Positions 2,316 to 21,441 are shown, numbered from the stretch's first letter. The stretch: DNA of 64,000 nt from an uncultured Candidatus Saccharibacteria bacterium (GCA_964413015.1 CAYPQZ010000006.1:7070-71069), one strand, 5' to 3'. The notes: generated by a model from the letters alone, not told the origin. Translations and numbers: made by a program.

Positions 2316-3377
2316 ATGTCTCTGTCCGTAGGGATTGTTGGTTTGCCAAATGTGGGCAAATCAACTTTGTTTCAAGCTATTACTAAAAAACAGGTTGACT
2401 GTTCCAATTATCCTTTTTGCACCATCGATCCTAACGTCGGCGTAGTAGCGGTGCCTGACCCGAGAGTTGATCAATTGGCTGAATTGACCAATTCAGCCAA
2501 AAAAATCTATACCACCATAGAGTTTGTGGATATTGCCGGGTTAGTTAAAGGAGCCAGCCAAGGCGAAGGATTAGGTAACAAATTTTTGGCCAATATCCGG
2601 GAAGTTGACCTGCTCGTCTATATCCTGCGTTGTTTTAAGAACGAAAAAATTGTTAACACCGAGTCAGAAATTGACCCTTTAGGCAACAAAGAAATTTTAG
2701 AAACCGAGATGGCCTTAAAGGATTTGGCTACAGTGGATAAGAGGGTTAAGGACTTATCAAAAGAATCCAAAGCCGGCGATAAAAAAGTTCTTAAGGAATT
2801 GGCCGTTTTAACCAGAGCGCGTGATTTTCTGCAAGCAGGGAAAATCTTAGCCGGTGAAAACTGGGAGGAATCGGAAGAAAAAATTTTAAACAATTACCAA
2901 TTATTAACTCTTAAACCAAGATTGTATTTGCTAAACGGGAATGAAGACGAAGTCCCCGCAAGGGTGATTGAGGAATTTAAGAAGCATAATTGGCATTTTT
3001 TAATTCTGGACATTTTGACCGAATTTGACGCGGCCGGGTTAAGCGCTGAAGAGAGGAAAGAATTTGATTTGCCGGATGATTTGAGAATTGATACTTTGAT
3101 AAAAGAGTCCTATAAACTGCTCAATTTGATTACTTTTCTGACTACCGGCTCGGACGAAACGCGCGCTTGGACTCTTGAAAAAGGCAAAAAAGCGCCCCAG
3201 GCTGGGGGCGTTATTCACAGCGATTTTGAAACTCGTTTTATTCGGGCGGAGGTTATTAATTGGCAGGATTTGATTGAAGCGGAAGGATTTGCCAAGGCCC
3301 GAGAAAAAGGATTAATCAGAACCGAAGGCCGGGATTACCTTATCCAAGACGGCGATGTAATTGAGATAAAGATTTAA
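2316..3377 (+). CDS. ychF: ribosome-binding ATPase YchF (Obg-family GTPase)
   Basis: G1 motif [14 protein letters not shown], then NxxD and a TGS-like C-terminus. AAGGAGG RBS upstream. Confidence 0.9.
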
Positions 3378-3384
3378 GACAGTT

Positions 3385-3405
3385 TTGAGACGTTGGACGT
3401 CTCAA
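3385..3405. repeat. REP-like 21-bp perfect palindrome TTGAGACGT-TGG-ACGTCTCAA (copy 1, 5' flank of the transposase gene)
   Basis: Exact palindrome seen directly. Same unit at 3592-3612, 4055-4075 and 21404-21424. Confidence 0.8.
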
Positions 3406-3411
3406 AAAACT

Positions 3412-4080
3412 ATGAGAAAAACACAATTAGTAAATGGGGAATTCTATCATATCTATAATCGTGGAGCAGATAAGCGAGCTATCTTTGGAGACGAATATGA
3501 TATAAAAAGATTTTTCCAGAGCATGGATGAGTTTAATATCCTTAAACCTATTGGCAGCATCTACAGAAATAATCTTTTAATAAATAAAAATTTGAGACGT
3601 CCAACGTCTCAAGTGCCTAAATTGGTTAATTTTATTTGTTTCTGCCTCAATCCCAATCACTATCATTTTATCATGGAACAAATTACAGATAATGGTATAA
3701 GTGAATTTATGAAAAGGTTAGGCGGTGGATATACAAAATATTTTAATGAGAAATACAAACGAAGCGGTGTACTTTTTCAGGGAAGATTTAAATCCGCGCA
3801 TATAAATTCAGATGAGTATTTGTTGCACTTAAGCGCATATGTTAATTTGAATAATCATGTTCATAAACTTAAAGGTTCGAAGGTTCAATTTATAAAATCG
3901 AGCTGGGAAGAATATGTTGGGAGAAGTCAGGAAAATTTTTGTAAAAAAGATATTATTTTAAAACAATTCAACAATTCAAAAGAATATATAGATTTTGCTA
4001 AGAGTTCACTAGAGAATATTATAAAAAGAAAAGAAGCAATGAGCGATTTATTAATTGAGACGTTGGACGTCTCAATTTAG
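3412..4080 (+). CDS. IS200/IS605-like HUH tyrosine transposase (REP-associated RayT-like)
   Basis: N-terminal GEFYHIYNRG, HUH motif NHYHFIME and catalytic-Tyr region GGGYTKYFNEKYKRSG. The listed ORF starts at TTG 3385 inside the palindrome; ATG 3412 is the likely true start. The last 8 codons (IETLDVSI) are encoded by the 3' palindrome. Confidence 0.7.
   Translation: MRKTQLVNGEFYHIYNRGADKRAIFGDEYDIKRFFQSMDEFNILKPIGSIYRNNLLINKNLRRPTSQVPKLVNFICFCLNPNHYHFIMEQITDNGISEFMKRLGGGYTKYFNEKYKRSGVLFQGRFKSAHINSDEYLLHLSAYVNLNNHVHKLKGSKVQFIKSSWEEYVGRSQENFCKKDIILKQFNNSKEYIDFAKSSLENIIKRKEAMSDLLIETLDVSI
3592..3612. repeat. REP-like palindrome copy 2 (CCA-centred), in-frame inside the transposase gene
   Basis: TTGAGACGTCCAACGTCTCAA encodes LRRPTSQ within a segment that looks inserted relative to canonical RayT. 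Confidence 0.75.
4055..4075. repeat. REP-like palindrome copy 3 (3' flank, overlapping the transposase stop and the sufB/D stop)
   Basis: TTGAGACGTTGGACGTCTCAA seen directly. Confidence 0.8.
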
Positions 4081-4974
4081 AAAGCCGTTGATGATAAGGT
4101 TAATGGCCTGCTTTTCGGAAAATCCTCTGGTTCTTAAATAATTTAATTCCTGTTCGGATATTTTCCCGATAGAGGCCTCGTGGGTAAGTAGGGCCTTTTT
4201 GTTTTTAATGATTAGTTCGGGAGAAAGCTTGATTTCAGAATGGTCGTTAACCAATAGCCCTTGGCAGTCTAGATGGCCTTGGCCAGCGGCTTGGGCAACA
4301 ATTTGGCTTTGAGCTTTAATTCGGCTGTTTTTTCTGCCTACCAGACGCAAACGGGTTATCCCATGGCTTCCTTGGCCTTTTAAAATTATAGCATCATTAA
4401 GGTCAACTTTTGAGTTAAGGCAATTAAGCGACATTCTTAAATTGGCTTTTGCCTTTTTAGAAACGTTTACTTTAGTATCCATGGTTAATTCCTTCGGAGC
4501 CGACATGTTTTTATAGATATAGTCCAGTTCTGATTTTTCACTCAGGTCAAATTCGTAGTTTGTTTTAACCGTATTCTTTTCTCCCCACAAATGGTTGTGT
4601 TCGTATTTTAAAATGGCTCCCGGCTTAAGGACGATTTTCCCAGAAGCTTTATGAGAGCCGGAACATTTTTTATCCGTTATATTGCAGGAACCAAAAACCT
4701 TTACCACTAAATTCTTTTCTACAATTAGGAGATTCTGAAGTTTCTGGCTGGTATTTTTATTAGCCAAGCTGATACAGGTGAATAAAGGAGAATTTATTTT
4801 TTCCTTAACCCAGATAAAGTAGCCATATTGGGGCCTTGTTTTAAAATATTTTTTAGTCCAGCTTATTTCTTTCCAGGCCTTGGCGCTGGGAACAATCAAA
4901 GCCCCTTTGATTTGGGAAATATTCTTTATTTTATTATCAACTTGCCAATAATGGGCATTTTTTGCATTTTTCAT
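4072..4974 (-). CDS. sufD: Fe-S cluster assembly protein, SufB/SufD family (short form, 300 aa)
   Basis: C-terminal ...THEASIGKISEQELNYLRTRGFSEKQAINLIINGF is typical of the SufB/D family. Adjacent to and overlapping sufC. Confidence 0.65.
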   Translation of the reverse strand: MKNAKNAHYWQVDNKIKNISQIKGALIVPSAKAWKEISWTKKYFKTRPQYGYFIWVKEKINSPLFTCISLANKNTSQKLQNLLIVEKNLVVKVFGSCNITDKKCSGSHKASGKIVLKPGAILKYEHNHLWGEKNTVKTNYEFDLSEKSELDYIYKNMSAPKELTMDTKVNVSKKAKANLRMSLNCLNSKVDLNDAIILKGQGSHGITRLRLVGRKNSRIKAQSQIVAQAAGQGHLDCQGLLVNDHSEIKLSPELIIKNKKALLTHEASIGKISEQELNYLRTRGFSEKQAINLIINGFLN

Positions 4975-12588: not shown

Positions 12589-12660
12589 GTGTCGGCTTTC
12601 GCATAGCCGACTAGTAAGTCGGCTATGCGAAAGCCGACACACTATGCGAAAGCCGACACA
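12589..12660. repeat. family-C palindromic units GTGTCGGCT-TTCGCAT-AGCCGACAC, 2.5 tandem/inverted copies
   Basis: Seen directly between the two permease genes. A single copy also lies at 738-763. Confidence 0.7.
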
Positions 12661-19951: not shown

Positions 19952-20551
19952 ATGGATAAATTGGCAACTATTGATAACCAGCTTAAGGAAATAAGGGATG
20001 AAGTTGTTGAATGCCGGAAATGTTCTCTTTGCCAGACCAGAATTTATCCGGTTATCGGACAGGGCAGTCATCAGGCGGAAATTGCGCTGGTAGGCGAGGC
20101 GCCGGGCGCTTCTGAAGACCAAACCGGCTTCCCTTTTTGCGGACAAGCCGGAGGAATCCTTGATGAATTGCTGAATTCAGCTAATTTAAAAAGAGAGACC
20201 GTGTATATTTGCAATATCCTTAAATGCCGGCCGCCGAGCAATCGCGACCCGCAAAAAGAGGAAATAGCTGCCTGTGTTCCTTATTTAGAAAGGCAAATTC
20301 AGATTATCCAACCGGCGATTATCGGTCTTATGGGCAATTACGCAACCGCTTTCCTTTTGGAAAAATTCGGCCTAAAAGACAAAATCCAAGGGATTAGCCG
20401 GATTCACGGGCAGGTTTTTGAAGCCCAAGCGGGCTTTGGGCCGATTAAGCTGATTCCTTTATATCATCCGGCGGTGGCGGTCTATAACGCCAATATGAAA
20501 GAAATCCTTAAAAAAGACTTTAAAACCCTTTATGAAAAACAAAAACTTTAG
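19952..20551 (+). CDS. uracil-DNA glycosylase, family 4
   Basis: ECRKCSLC...GEAPGASEDQTGFPFCGQAG...YICNILKCRPPSNRDP. Confidence 0.8.
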   Translation: MDKLATIDNQLKEIRDEVVECRKCSLCQTRIYPVIGQGSHQAEIALVGEAPGASEDQTGFPFCGQAGGILDELLNSANLKRETVYICNILKCRPPSNRDPQKEEIAACVPYLERQIQIIQPAIIGLMGNYATAFLLEKFGLKDKIQGISRIHGQVFEAQAGFGPIKLIPLYHPAVAVYNANMKEILKKDFKTLYEKQKL

Positions 20552-21407
20552 ATTAGTGATTGCTTCCGGAAAAGGCGGGGTCGGCAAGTCCATGCTAACT
20601 TCGGCTTTGGCGATGCTTTACAGCCAAAAAAAGAAGATAATTGCAGTGGACGCTGATGTAGACGCGCCTAATCTGGCGGTTTGGCTGAACCAATTGGATG
20701 AAAAAAATGTCCAGTTTTCCAAGAAAATCTCTACTTCTTTGAAGGCAATCATTGACGAGAACAAATGCAATGGCTGCGGCCAGTGTGTTGATAAGTGTGT
20801 TTTTAGCGCTTTGAAAATTAAGAATCACAAGGCCAAAGTAAATCCTTTTTTATGCGAAGGATGCGGCGTTTGCCAAATTGTTTGTCCGCAGAAAGCGGTT
20901 GAATTAAGGCCGGTGGATAACGGCCAAATTAAGATGGTGAACACCGATTACGGCTTTCCTTTGTTTTCCGGCCAGCTTTTGCCGGGCGAAACCGGCTCGG
21001 GCAAAGTGGTGGCTGAAATTAAAAAGGCGGCCCGGGAAAAAGGCGATTGCGATTTAATGCTGATTGATTCCTCGCCGGGCACAGGTTGTCCGGTCATCGC
21101 TTCCTTTCAGGATGCTGATTTGGCGGTTTTAATCACTGAACCGACGCCTTCCGGATTAAGCGATTTGAAAAGAGTTCTGAAAGTGGTTGAGCATTTCCAG
21201 ATTCCTTTTAAGGTGGTGGTTAATAAATGGGATATTAATCCTTCAATAACCGGAGAAATAGAGGAAGAGTTTAAAAATGAGTTTTTAGGAAAAATTTCCT
21301 ATGACCAGGGTATTTTCAAGGCAATTGCCAATTTAACGCCTATTTTAAAAACCAAATTAAAGGCCAAACAGGAAATTAAAGCAATTTTCAAGAAATTATA
21401 CAGTTGA
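20532..21407 (+). CDS. MinD/Mrp-family P-loop ATPase with two 4Fe-4S ferredoxin motifs (second paralogue)
   Basis: SGKGGVGKS, CNGCGQCVDKCVFSAL, CEGCGVCQIVCPQKAV. The stop codon lies inside REP copy 4. Confidence 0.75.
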   Translation: MKNKNFRLVIASGKGGVGKSMLTSALAMLYSQKKKIIAVDADVDAPNLAVWLNQLDEKNVQFSKKISTSLKAIIDENKCNGCGQCVDKCVFSALKIKNHKAKVNPFLCEGCGVCQIVCPQKAVELRPVDNGQIKMVNTDYGFPLFSGQLLPGETGSGKVVAEIKKAAREKGDCDLMLIDSSPGTGCPVIASFQDADLAVLITEPTPSGLSDLKRVLKVVEHFQIPFKVVVNKWDINPSITGEIEEEFKNEFLGKISYDQGIFKAIANLTPILKTKLKAKQEIKAIFKKLYS

Positions 21408-21424
21408 GACGTCCAACGTCTCAA
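21404..21424. repeat. REP-like palindrome copy 4 (TTGAGACGTCCAACGTCTCAA)
   Basis: Seen directly, 17 kb from the transposase gene. Confidence 0.8.
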
Positions 21425-21441
21425 CTGCGTCTTAATTGCGT

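Follow-up and report, generated by a model that had tools for sequence, protein, structure and literature searches.

A RayT-like Y1/HUH gene with its own perfect hairpin in Candidatus Saccharibacteria: a probable REPtron-like unit of a large, mostly CPR/Patescibacteria family

Enzymes of the RAYT type (REP-associated tyrosine transposases, also named TnpAREP) form, together with their cognate repetitive extragenic palindromic (REP) hairpins, the units known as REPtrons, which have been described in E. coli, Pseudomonas and Stenotrophomonas (Nunvar 2010, PMC2817692; Ton-Hoang/Corneloup, PMC8266576). The mechanism of REP dissemination is still unknown, and the tested enzymes of E. coli and S. 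maltophilia are inactive on inverse REP (PMC8266576). Subclass 2.4 of TnpAY1 (Bertels group 4), found in Cyanobacteria and Bacteroidetes, harbors the motifs NH[IFV]H, WQ and YIxNNP, has REPs with a GT[AG]G “double foot” and bears, as a unique feature, in-frame REP insertions of variable length within tnpAREP, generally between HuH and Y (Quentin, Siguier, Chandler and Fichant 2018, PMC6006769). Subclass 2.1, or TIRYT (Bertels group 1), has NH[YF]H, FQ and Y[IV]HLNP, terminal inverted repeats of the GGGGWSAS type and reportedly no nearby REP-like sequences (PMC6006769). In-frame palindromic repeats are also known as Rickettsia palindromic elements (RPEs) and intragenic REPs (Di Nocera 2013, PMC3733652). 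The present work concerns a stretch of 64,000 nucleotides from an uncultured Candidatus Saccharibacteria bacterium (GCA_964413015.1, CAYPQZ010000006.1:7070-71069), hereafter the window, and in it a RayT-like Y1/HUH gene (3412..4080, plus strand) which is flanked by, and carries in-frame, copies of one perfect 21-bp palindrome. We regard this locus as probably a REPtron-like unit, belonging to a large family of single-copy RayT-like Y1/HUH enzymes, mostly of the candidate phyla radiation (CPR)/Patescibacteria, each accompanied by its own perfect hairpin. A first-pass annotation of the same DNA had supposed that REP/RayT systems were unreported in CPR-like lineages, and literature searches for REP/RAYT in CPR/Patescibacteria indeed found nothing relevant. 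The in-frame REP within a transposase gene, which it also described, is anticipated by the published subclass 2.4 (PMC6006769); what is new here is a distinct, CPR-wide family with fixed sites.

The window was searched for TTGAGACGT-NNN-ACGTCTCAA with up to three mismatches allowed; as a continuous sequence the palindrome reads TTGAGACGTNNNACGTCTCAA. Exactly four matches were found, all with 0 mismatches, in agreement with the count first reported, while shuffling gave an expectation of 0.01 and four matches were reached in 0/100 shuffles. Folded as single-stranded DNA (ssDNA), each copy forms a 9-12 bp stem with a 3-nt loop (-8.5 to -13.2 kcal/mol, z-scores of -5.4 to -8.0), and none is assigned to a strand. 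The 5′ flank copy (3383..3407, core 3385-3405, loop TGG) has an 11-bp perfect stem, begins 5 nt past the ychF stop and reaches to within 4 nt of the ATG in its extended form, or 6 nt as a core. The internal copy (3592..3612, loop CCA, inverted relative to the flank copies) occupies what we call conserved site 1 and encodes, in-frame, L61-R-R-P-T-S-Q67, placing it after the YHIYNRG strand and ahead of the HUH motif (H83-Y-H85), as had been proposed. On the minus strand of 3592-3612, this copy followed by ATTTTTATTT scores intrinsic-terminator-like for antisense transcription, a score that may be incidental to the A-rich coding sequence. The 3′ copy (4053..4077, core 4055-4075, loop TGG) encodes the disordered tail I-E-T-L-D-V-S-I; it had been credited with the last 8 codons and the stop of the gene, and it does supply the last 7-8 codons, but the TAG of the gene itself (4078-4080) lies just outside. 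It also gives a minus-strand TGA stop (4072-4074) to a convergent SUFBD_core (SufBD-like) gene at 4072-4974, and the two genes overlap by 9 bp (4072-4080). The fourth copy (21401..21427, core 21404-21424, loop CCA) has a 12-bp stem and is dispersed, lying about 17 kb from the RayT-like gene and upstream of a DUF134 gene. Inside it is the TGA stop (21405-21407) of a plus-strand gene at 20532-21407, as noticed earlier; that gene had been called MinD-like, whereas it encodes a CbiA/ParA-type P-loop ATPase with a 4Fe-4S insert. The coordinates thus bear out a transposase gene bracketed by a palindrome that it also contains in-frame and that recurs elsewhere. An Rfam search of window positions 3000-4500 returned no family at E ≤ 1.

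The gene encodes a protein of 222 aa; its start is probably the ATG at 3412, aligned with the M1 of its homologues, rather than the TTG at 3385. Its HUH motif is located at 3658-3666 and its putative catalytic residue, Tyr143 (3838-3840), lies in the invariant motif Y-V-N-L-N within a predicted helix (134-145), and the protein has a helical C-terminal domain of about 70 aa. Residues H83, H85 and Y143 are invariant throughout a 106-sequence alignment. The Pfam family Y1_Tnp (PF01797) is matched with 31 bits (cutoff 23, E = 3e-7), the match being limited to residues 72-145 and profile positions 41-119. An AlphaFold2 model built from the same alignment (pLDDT 83.7, pTM 0.81) has as its best solved-structure match in Foldseek 4er8_A, the E. 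coli RayT/TnpAREP with a REP hairpin (PMC3479197; E = 1.3e-5, TM-target 0.61), followed by the TnpA proteins of IS608, ISDra2 and IS200. The hairpin-encoded segments fall in the weakly modeled parts of this structure: the site 1 region (residues 55-64), where the internal copy encodes a loop of low confidence that joins helix 50-56 to strand 72-79, and the tail encoded by the 3′ copy (215-222) have pLDDT <50, and a second conserved site, described below, dips to pLDDT 76 between blocks >90. An identical protein has been deposited as hypothetical under “Firmicutes bacterium ML8_F2” (Mono Lake, GCA_002030005.1), a label that may be wrong, as organism-named homologues are mostly Patescibacteria/CPR. 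More than 4,000 word-indexed homologues were retrieved, overwhelmingly unnamed, with the named ones mostly from Patescibacteria and a few annotated as RayT by the Joint Genome Institute (JGI); an exhaustive search gave 15,635 cluster representatives at E ≤ 1e-3, of which 277 reach E ≤ 1e-30. Members from CPR/Patescibacteria are currently annotated only as “transposase” or “hypothetical”.

The evidence that the hairpins belong to the gene comes from its relatives. We scanned 80 homologous metagenome loci (47-63% identity) for perfect hairpins and added a Patescibacteria genome locus (L008) and the window when occupancy was calculated, occupancy being the number of occupied loci over the contigs that cover the site. 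Nearly every locus has its own perfect palindrome of 21-35 bp, typically aCTTGGnnnn-NNN-nnnnCCAAGt, and it recurs at up to four conserved offsets from the ATG, all given here as approximate values. The non-coding 5′ flank site at about -40 is occupied in 76 cases for 75 covering contigs, a count that includes a few spurious calls. Site 1 at +175, before the HUH motif, is occupied in 44/79 (38 of the 44 in one frame), and site 2 at +447, after the catalytic Tyr, in 49/79 (47 of the 49 in one frame). The 3′ end site at +655 is occupied in 60/71, with its copies spread over the three frames as 22, 20 and 18. Read across these four sites, the occupancy pattern of the window is 1101. Its site 2 survives as a decayed relic (3865..3897, plus strand; residues 152-162, KLKGSKVQFIK), which has lost the palindrome and aligns without gaps to the QLGxxTSKLVK that is palindrome-encoded in the 49/79 relatives.

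The first-pass annotation had taken the internal copy for an insert that canonical RayT/IS200 proteins lack, and for an invasion of the transposase gene by its own palindrome. This is only partly right, as the alignment supports neither an insert peculiar to this gene nor a recent self-invasion. Homologues at 57-67% identity run straight through the segment of 3592-3612 and have L-[GR]-x-x-T-S-K there, encoded by palindromes of their own, and the same layout with a lineage-specific hairpin is found in most of the 80 related loci. In most such homologues the heptapeptide appears again past the catalytic-Tyr helix, and in some once more at the C-terminus; within each protein these copies co-vary. 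Since homologues carry their own palindrome-encoded heptapeptide at the same place, the internal copy is, judging from these alignments, an ancestral and maintained feature of a large family, and the four-site layout reads as an old conserved design and not as a recent accident. Among the representatives in which the motifs are recognisable, about 45% have a palindrome-compatible heptapeptide at site 1 or 2 against a background expectation of about 12%; in more distant representatives the inserts at site 1 are repetitive and much longer.

What most relatives conserve of the hairpin is its outer stem; the inner stem and the loop differ from lineage to lineage. Pairs of copies have the same inner 7-mer in 88% of cases within a locus and in 4.3% between loci, with 42 variants in all. 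The window has the variant outer stem TTGAG/CTCAA in place of the CTTGG/CCAAG of most relatives, and its outermost codon pair TTG...CAA (Leu/Gln) replaces the usual CTT...AAG (Leu/Lys), a compensatory change that keeps the symmetry. In L062 both flank copies (-54 and +647 from the ATG at 2728) have the same 13-nt expansion, with a 16-bp stem and a TCGA loop, and the in-frame copy at site 1 keeps the short form without it; such a shared expansion points to copying rather than to independent mutation. The Patescibacteria genome locus L008 has the GAGACGT core of the window at its 5′ flank, at site 2 and over the stop. Inverted palindrome doublets were seen in L036, L033 and L108, the one of L108 being 48 nt long and in-frame.

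Paralogues separate the palindromes in the same way. Four loci have a second complete homologue (28-35% identity), each flanked on both sides by a different palindrome, and two of the four also carry their own palindrome in-frame, at +161 and +277. Their Y motifs are YIH[LM]NP in L076, L097 and L109 and YIHLNS in L037. Concerning copies away from the gene, the earlier description of the palindrome as REP-like, with one copy 17 kb away, holds in so far as such copies exist, but they are sparse: the relatives' flanks, 563 kb in total, contain 12 exact copies (about 1 per 47 kb), and a single one lies in the roughly 70 kb of source genome, so that confinement to a few loci is only narrowly escaped. 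The outside copies are genuine in that all carry the ACTT/AAGT extension, and some of them supply stop codons. Specifically, the L090 locus has its own palindrome (2524-2550) in-frame inside ychF (1865-2971), where NQLGGFTSKLP is thereby added to a variable region; the three other YchF proteins compared (window, L077 and L098) do not have this insert.

The 5′ copy also overlaps what looks like a promoter. In 53/78 loci an extended -10 (TGnTAnnnT) takes its TG from the right arm (...CCAAGTG), and the left arm contributes TTGGnn as a -35-like element, with a spacing of 16-17 nt. The best-scoring sites reported by the scan tool in L047 (8682-8710) and L072 (9960-9988) are this palindrome promoter, with 10/12 matches plus the TG. 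On this sequence evidence, the 5′ palindrome apparently spans -35 to -14 of the gene's own promoter in most relatives. In 52 loci 6-9 nt separate the end of the -10 from the ATG, the distance being exactly 6 nt in 31, and from this a leaderless mRNA is predicted for the CPR family members.

Set beside REPtrons, the CPR family shares a single-copy Y1/HUH gene flanked by its own palindrome, one palindrome family per paralogue, the co-evolution of gene and palindrome and a predicted fold that is closest to 4er8. It differs from them in the lack of a 5′ GT[AG]G guide, in its perfect 9-13 bp stems with 3-nt loops, in an apparently very low genomic copy number, in having YVNLN[ND] instead of Y---NP and “FQ” instead of “WQ/WE”, in its extra C-terminal helical domain, in the two conserved in-frame copies and in a 5′ copy that is built into the promoter in most members. 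Subclass 2.4 is partly alike in having cognate REPs in-frame inside the transposase gene, in a peripheral loop, besides the flanking ones. Unlike that subclass, the CPR family has the motifs NHYH, FQ and YVNLN[ND], resides in CPR hosts, which are unmentioned in PMC6006769, and has sites that precede HuH and follow Y, with position and frame both fixed. The closest published motif pattern is that of subclass 2.1 (its second motif variant), which is also similar in length (~238 aa) and in its conserved C-terminal domain, but the hairpins at up to four sites set the CPR family apart. As with RPEs and intragenic REPs, palindromes are translated as peptide segments in loops of housekeeping proteins (here the ychF of L090); those elements, however, are of greater length (20-50 aa), and no cognate gene with copies at conserved sites has been demonstrated for them. 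Finally, IS200/IS605 insertion sequences (IS) have the Y1/HUH fold and a hairpin-bordered gene, their hairpins being recognised on ssDNA, but they are multi-copy and mobile, with Y---Q and distinct imperfect left end (LE) and right end (RE) hairpins, whereas the CPR gene is single-copy at the scale of window and contigs, with YVNLN and identical perfect palindromes.

How such a unit might work can be proposed by analogy with E. coli TnpAREP. The enzyme would bind its own hairpin on ssDNA and cut and rejoin the strand beside it. This activity would copy or replace hairpins, preferentially near the gene, and the copies would thereby stay homogeneous; the two internal sites would persist because they lie in permissive loops. 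Binding at the promoter-embedded 5′ copy would likely lead to negative autoregulation in most members, and hairpins would be sparsely disseminated elsewhere.

Several observations weigh against the REPtron-like reading. Either internal site can be missing (patterns 1011, 1101 and 1001), and as either is lost in some lineages, neither is essential. The orientation of the loop is random between the 5′ and 3′ copies, 23 pairs being the same and 25 inverted; a conserved orientation, whether inverted as in REPtrons or direct as in IS200, was looked for and not seen. Given the inactivity of the E. coli and S. maltophilia enzymes on inverse REP, an enzyme that reads the loop would find about half of the copies on the “wrong” strand. 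The copy number outside the gene, in the stretches counted, is far below that of classical REPs. The protein had been called RayT-like, a name sustained by the Y1_Tnp match and the 4er8 fold; its score against the NCBIfam RayT equivalog NF047646, however, is 26.5 bits for a cutoff of 80, and sequence and profile searches of the PDB gave no significant match, 4ER8 included. The PDB sequence matches to the CS6 fimbrial subunit and RNase A were insignificant and were set aside; the link to RayT comes from the fold search only. Sequence similarity to characterised RayT is accordingly very low. The canonical Y---NP is not present either, Y143-V-N-L-N147 being followed by N or D and never by P in the clade. 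The GT[AG]G foot of known REPs is absent as well: the consensus of 66 5′ and 53 3′ copies is cCACTTGG...CCAAGTGg, with no conserved unpaired 5′ tetranucleotide, and the window copies have variable flanks at the hairpin foot. A promoter scan upstream of 3412 in the window found no promoter-like site and no -10 box, and the palindrome-promoter arrangement is therefore not claimable for the window locus; the palindrome there abuts the ATG, ychF ends 35 nt upstream, and the RayT-like gene is probably read through from ychF. Lastly, the enzyme activity that the reading calls for is a prediction for the CPR family, made from fold and sequence.

The alternative that survives best is that the hairpins are mainly cis-regulatory for their own gene, with the 5′ copy as an operator over the promoter, the internal and 3′ copies as pause, roadblock, stability or enzyme-level-sensing sites, and dissemination as an incidental outcome. 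We hold this to be possible, though clearly the less probable explanation. The near-consensus promoter whose -35, spacer and TG are made by the 5′ palindrome in those 53/78 loci, at a fixed distance from the ATG, would be expected from it, and so would the palindrome density, about 170-fold higher at the gene than elsewhere, and the conservation of the positions across 47-63% protein identity. Against this, many lineages do without one or the other internal site, neither a site 2 hairpin nor the promoter arrangement is present in the window, and copies are found elsewhere, including the one in-frame in ychF. Regulation alone also leaves the common 13-nt flank expansion of L062 unexplained. The mismatch spectrum gives no sign of sense-RNA pairing either: there is no excess of G.T over A.C, hence no sign of selection on a sense-RNA hairpin, and the idea of a sense-mRNA hairpin was dropped. 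Site 1 has an excess of A.C (17 vs 1), which probably stems from codon constraints at the stem base.

Rather doubtful, in our judgment, is a bolder proposal, in which the four-hairpin layout is a self-targeting design. The principal substrate of the enzyme would be its own gene, with autoregulation and with the hairpins as strand-transfer sites at which modules (the N-terminal part, the catalytic core and the C-terminal domain) could be rewritten, inverted or excised; gene and hairpin would thus be locked together across CPR, and outside copies would be by-products. Module deletion between hairpins was looked for among the short representatives, and there was no evidence of programmed excision in them: P0142, P0204, P0193 and others look like fragments or unrelated deletions, with no clean hairpin-to-hairpin junction. 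P0193 (151 aa) has an internal deletion running from after the HUH helix to the C-terminal domain, catalytic Tyr included, with its junction off the hairpin sites.

It is improbable that the hairpin-gene-hairpin arrangement is an active IS200-like insertion sequence with the flank palindromes as its left and right ends, even though hairpins stand on both sides of a gene with a Y1 transposase fold and the cassette is not oriented the same way to ychF in all lineages. The gene adjoins ychF in five lineages, namely the window (2316-3377), L090, L077, L065 and L098, and ychF is co-directional and upstream in the window and L090 but convergent and downstream in L077 and L065. In the window, L077 and L065 the ychF stop is about 5-25 nt from a palindrome copy, as if the hairpin-flanked cassette had been inverted. 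The recurrence of this linkage in five loci suggests vertical inheritance with local rearrangement, which speaks against an active element. So does the occurrence of one copy per window or contig: the window holds one homologue and no second RayT-like gene, the gene neighbours are the same in 5 assemblies, and contigs of up to 320 kb assemble through the gene. A tnpB is missing, the Y motif differs from Y---Q, and one perfect palindrome is repeated at both ends and inside the gene in place of distinct imperfect LE and RE hairpins.

Two further explanations are disfavoured and appear very improbable. The heptapeptide (LGxPTSK/LRRPTSQ) recurs at two fixed protein positions in many homologues and could be a functional protein motif with the DNA symmetry as a by-product, but the same DNA also stands outside the coding sequence, at the 5′ flank, and its 3′ copies are spread over all three frames, the peptide varies freely over the 42 DNA variants while the symmetry is kept, loop flips alter the middle residue, and the segments are predicted to be disordered. 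Equally hard to credit are generic host elements unrelated to the enzyme (terminators, restriction sites or the sites of another protein), to which copies at gene ends and the GAGACG/CGTCTC of the window variant (CGTCTC is the BsmBI/Esp3I site) might point, given that nearly every lineage has a sequence of its own, which nonetheless always agrees between the flanks and the interior of the gene, that paralogues in one genome carry different palindromes, and that most copies have no T-run.

A scan of genome contigs, among which the source genome is not represented, with the 21-mer gave 29 matches. These comprise the homologous locus L008, an intergenic Patescibacteria copy (L012), chance-level singletons, of which by our own estimate about 9 are expected for 18 fixed bases in 596 Gb, and an unrelated Amycolatopsis/Kutzneria repeat. 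Within the set L001-L029, the 21-mer core is, in these Pseudonocardiaceae genomes, the tip of a dispersed palindromic repeat of about 55 nt, tgtcctgaaggccccctTTGAGACGTTGAACGTCTCAAagggggccttcaggaca, and a metagenome-assembled genome of Chloroflexia (L007/L028) has a shorter repeat with the same core at its tip; both are apparently unrelated families that share the core. The window itself contains a second, unrelated palindromic family, GTCGGCT-N7-AGCCGAC, with three exact copies at 740-760, 12591-12611 and 12618-12638 (0.03 expected), of which the pair at 12.6 kb is arranged as an inverted, REPIN-like doublet with a partial tandem repeat after it.

With this family, systems of the REP/RAYT type extend to CPR/Patescibacteria, where peptides encoded by hairpins pass unnoticed into the translated proteins. 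The family also offers a compact test case, with an enzyme of 222 aa and a perfect hairpin of 21-25 bp in 3-4 copies within 0.7 kb, demonstrably co-evolving across many lineages and with one copy apparently doubling as promoter in most members, in which hairpin recognition, copy homogenisation and autoregulation become directly testable.

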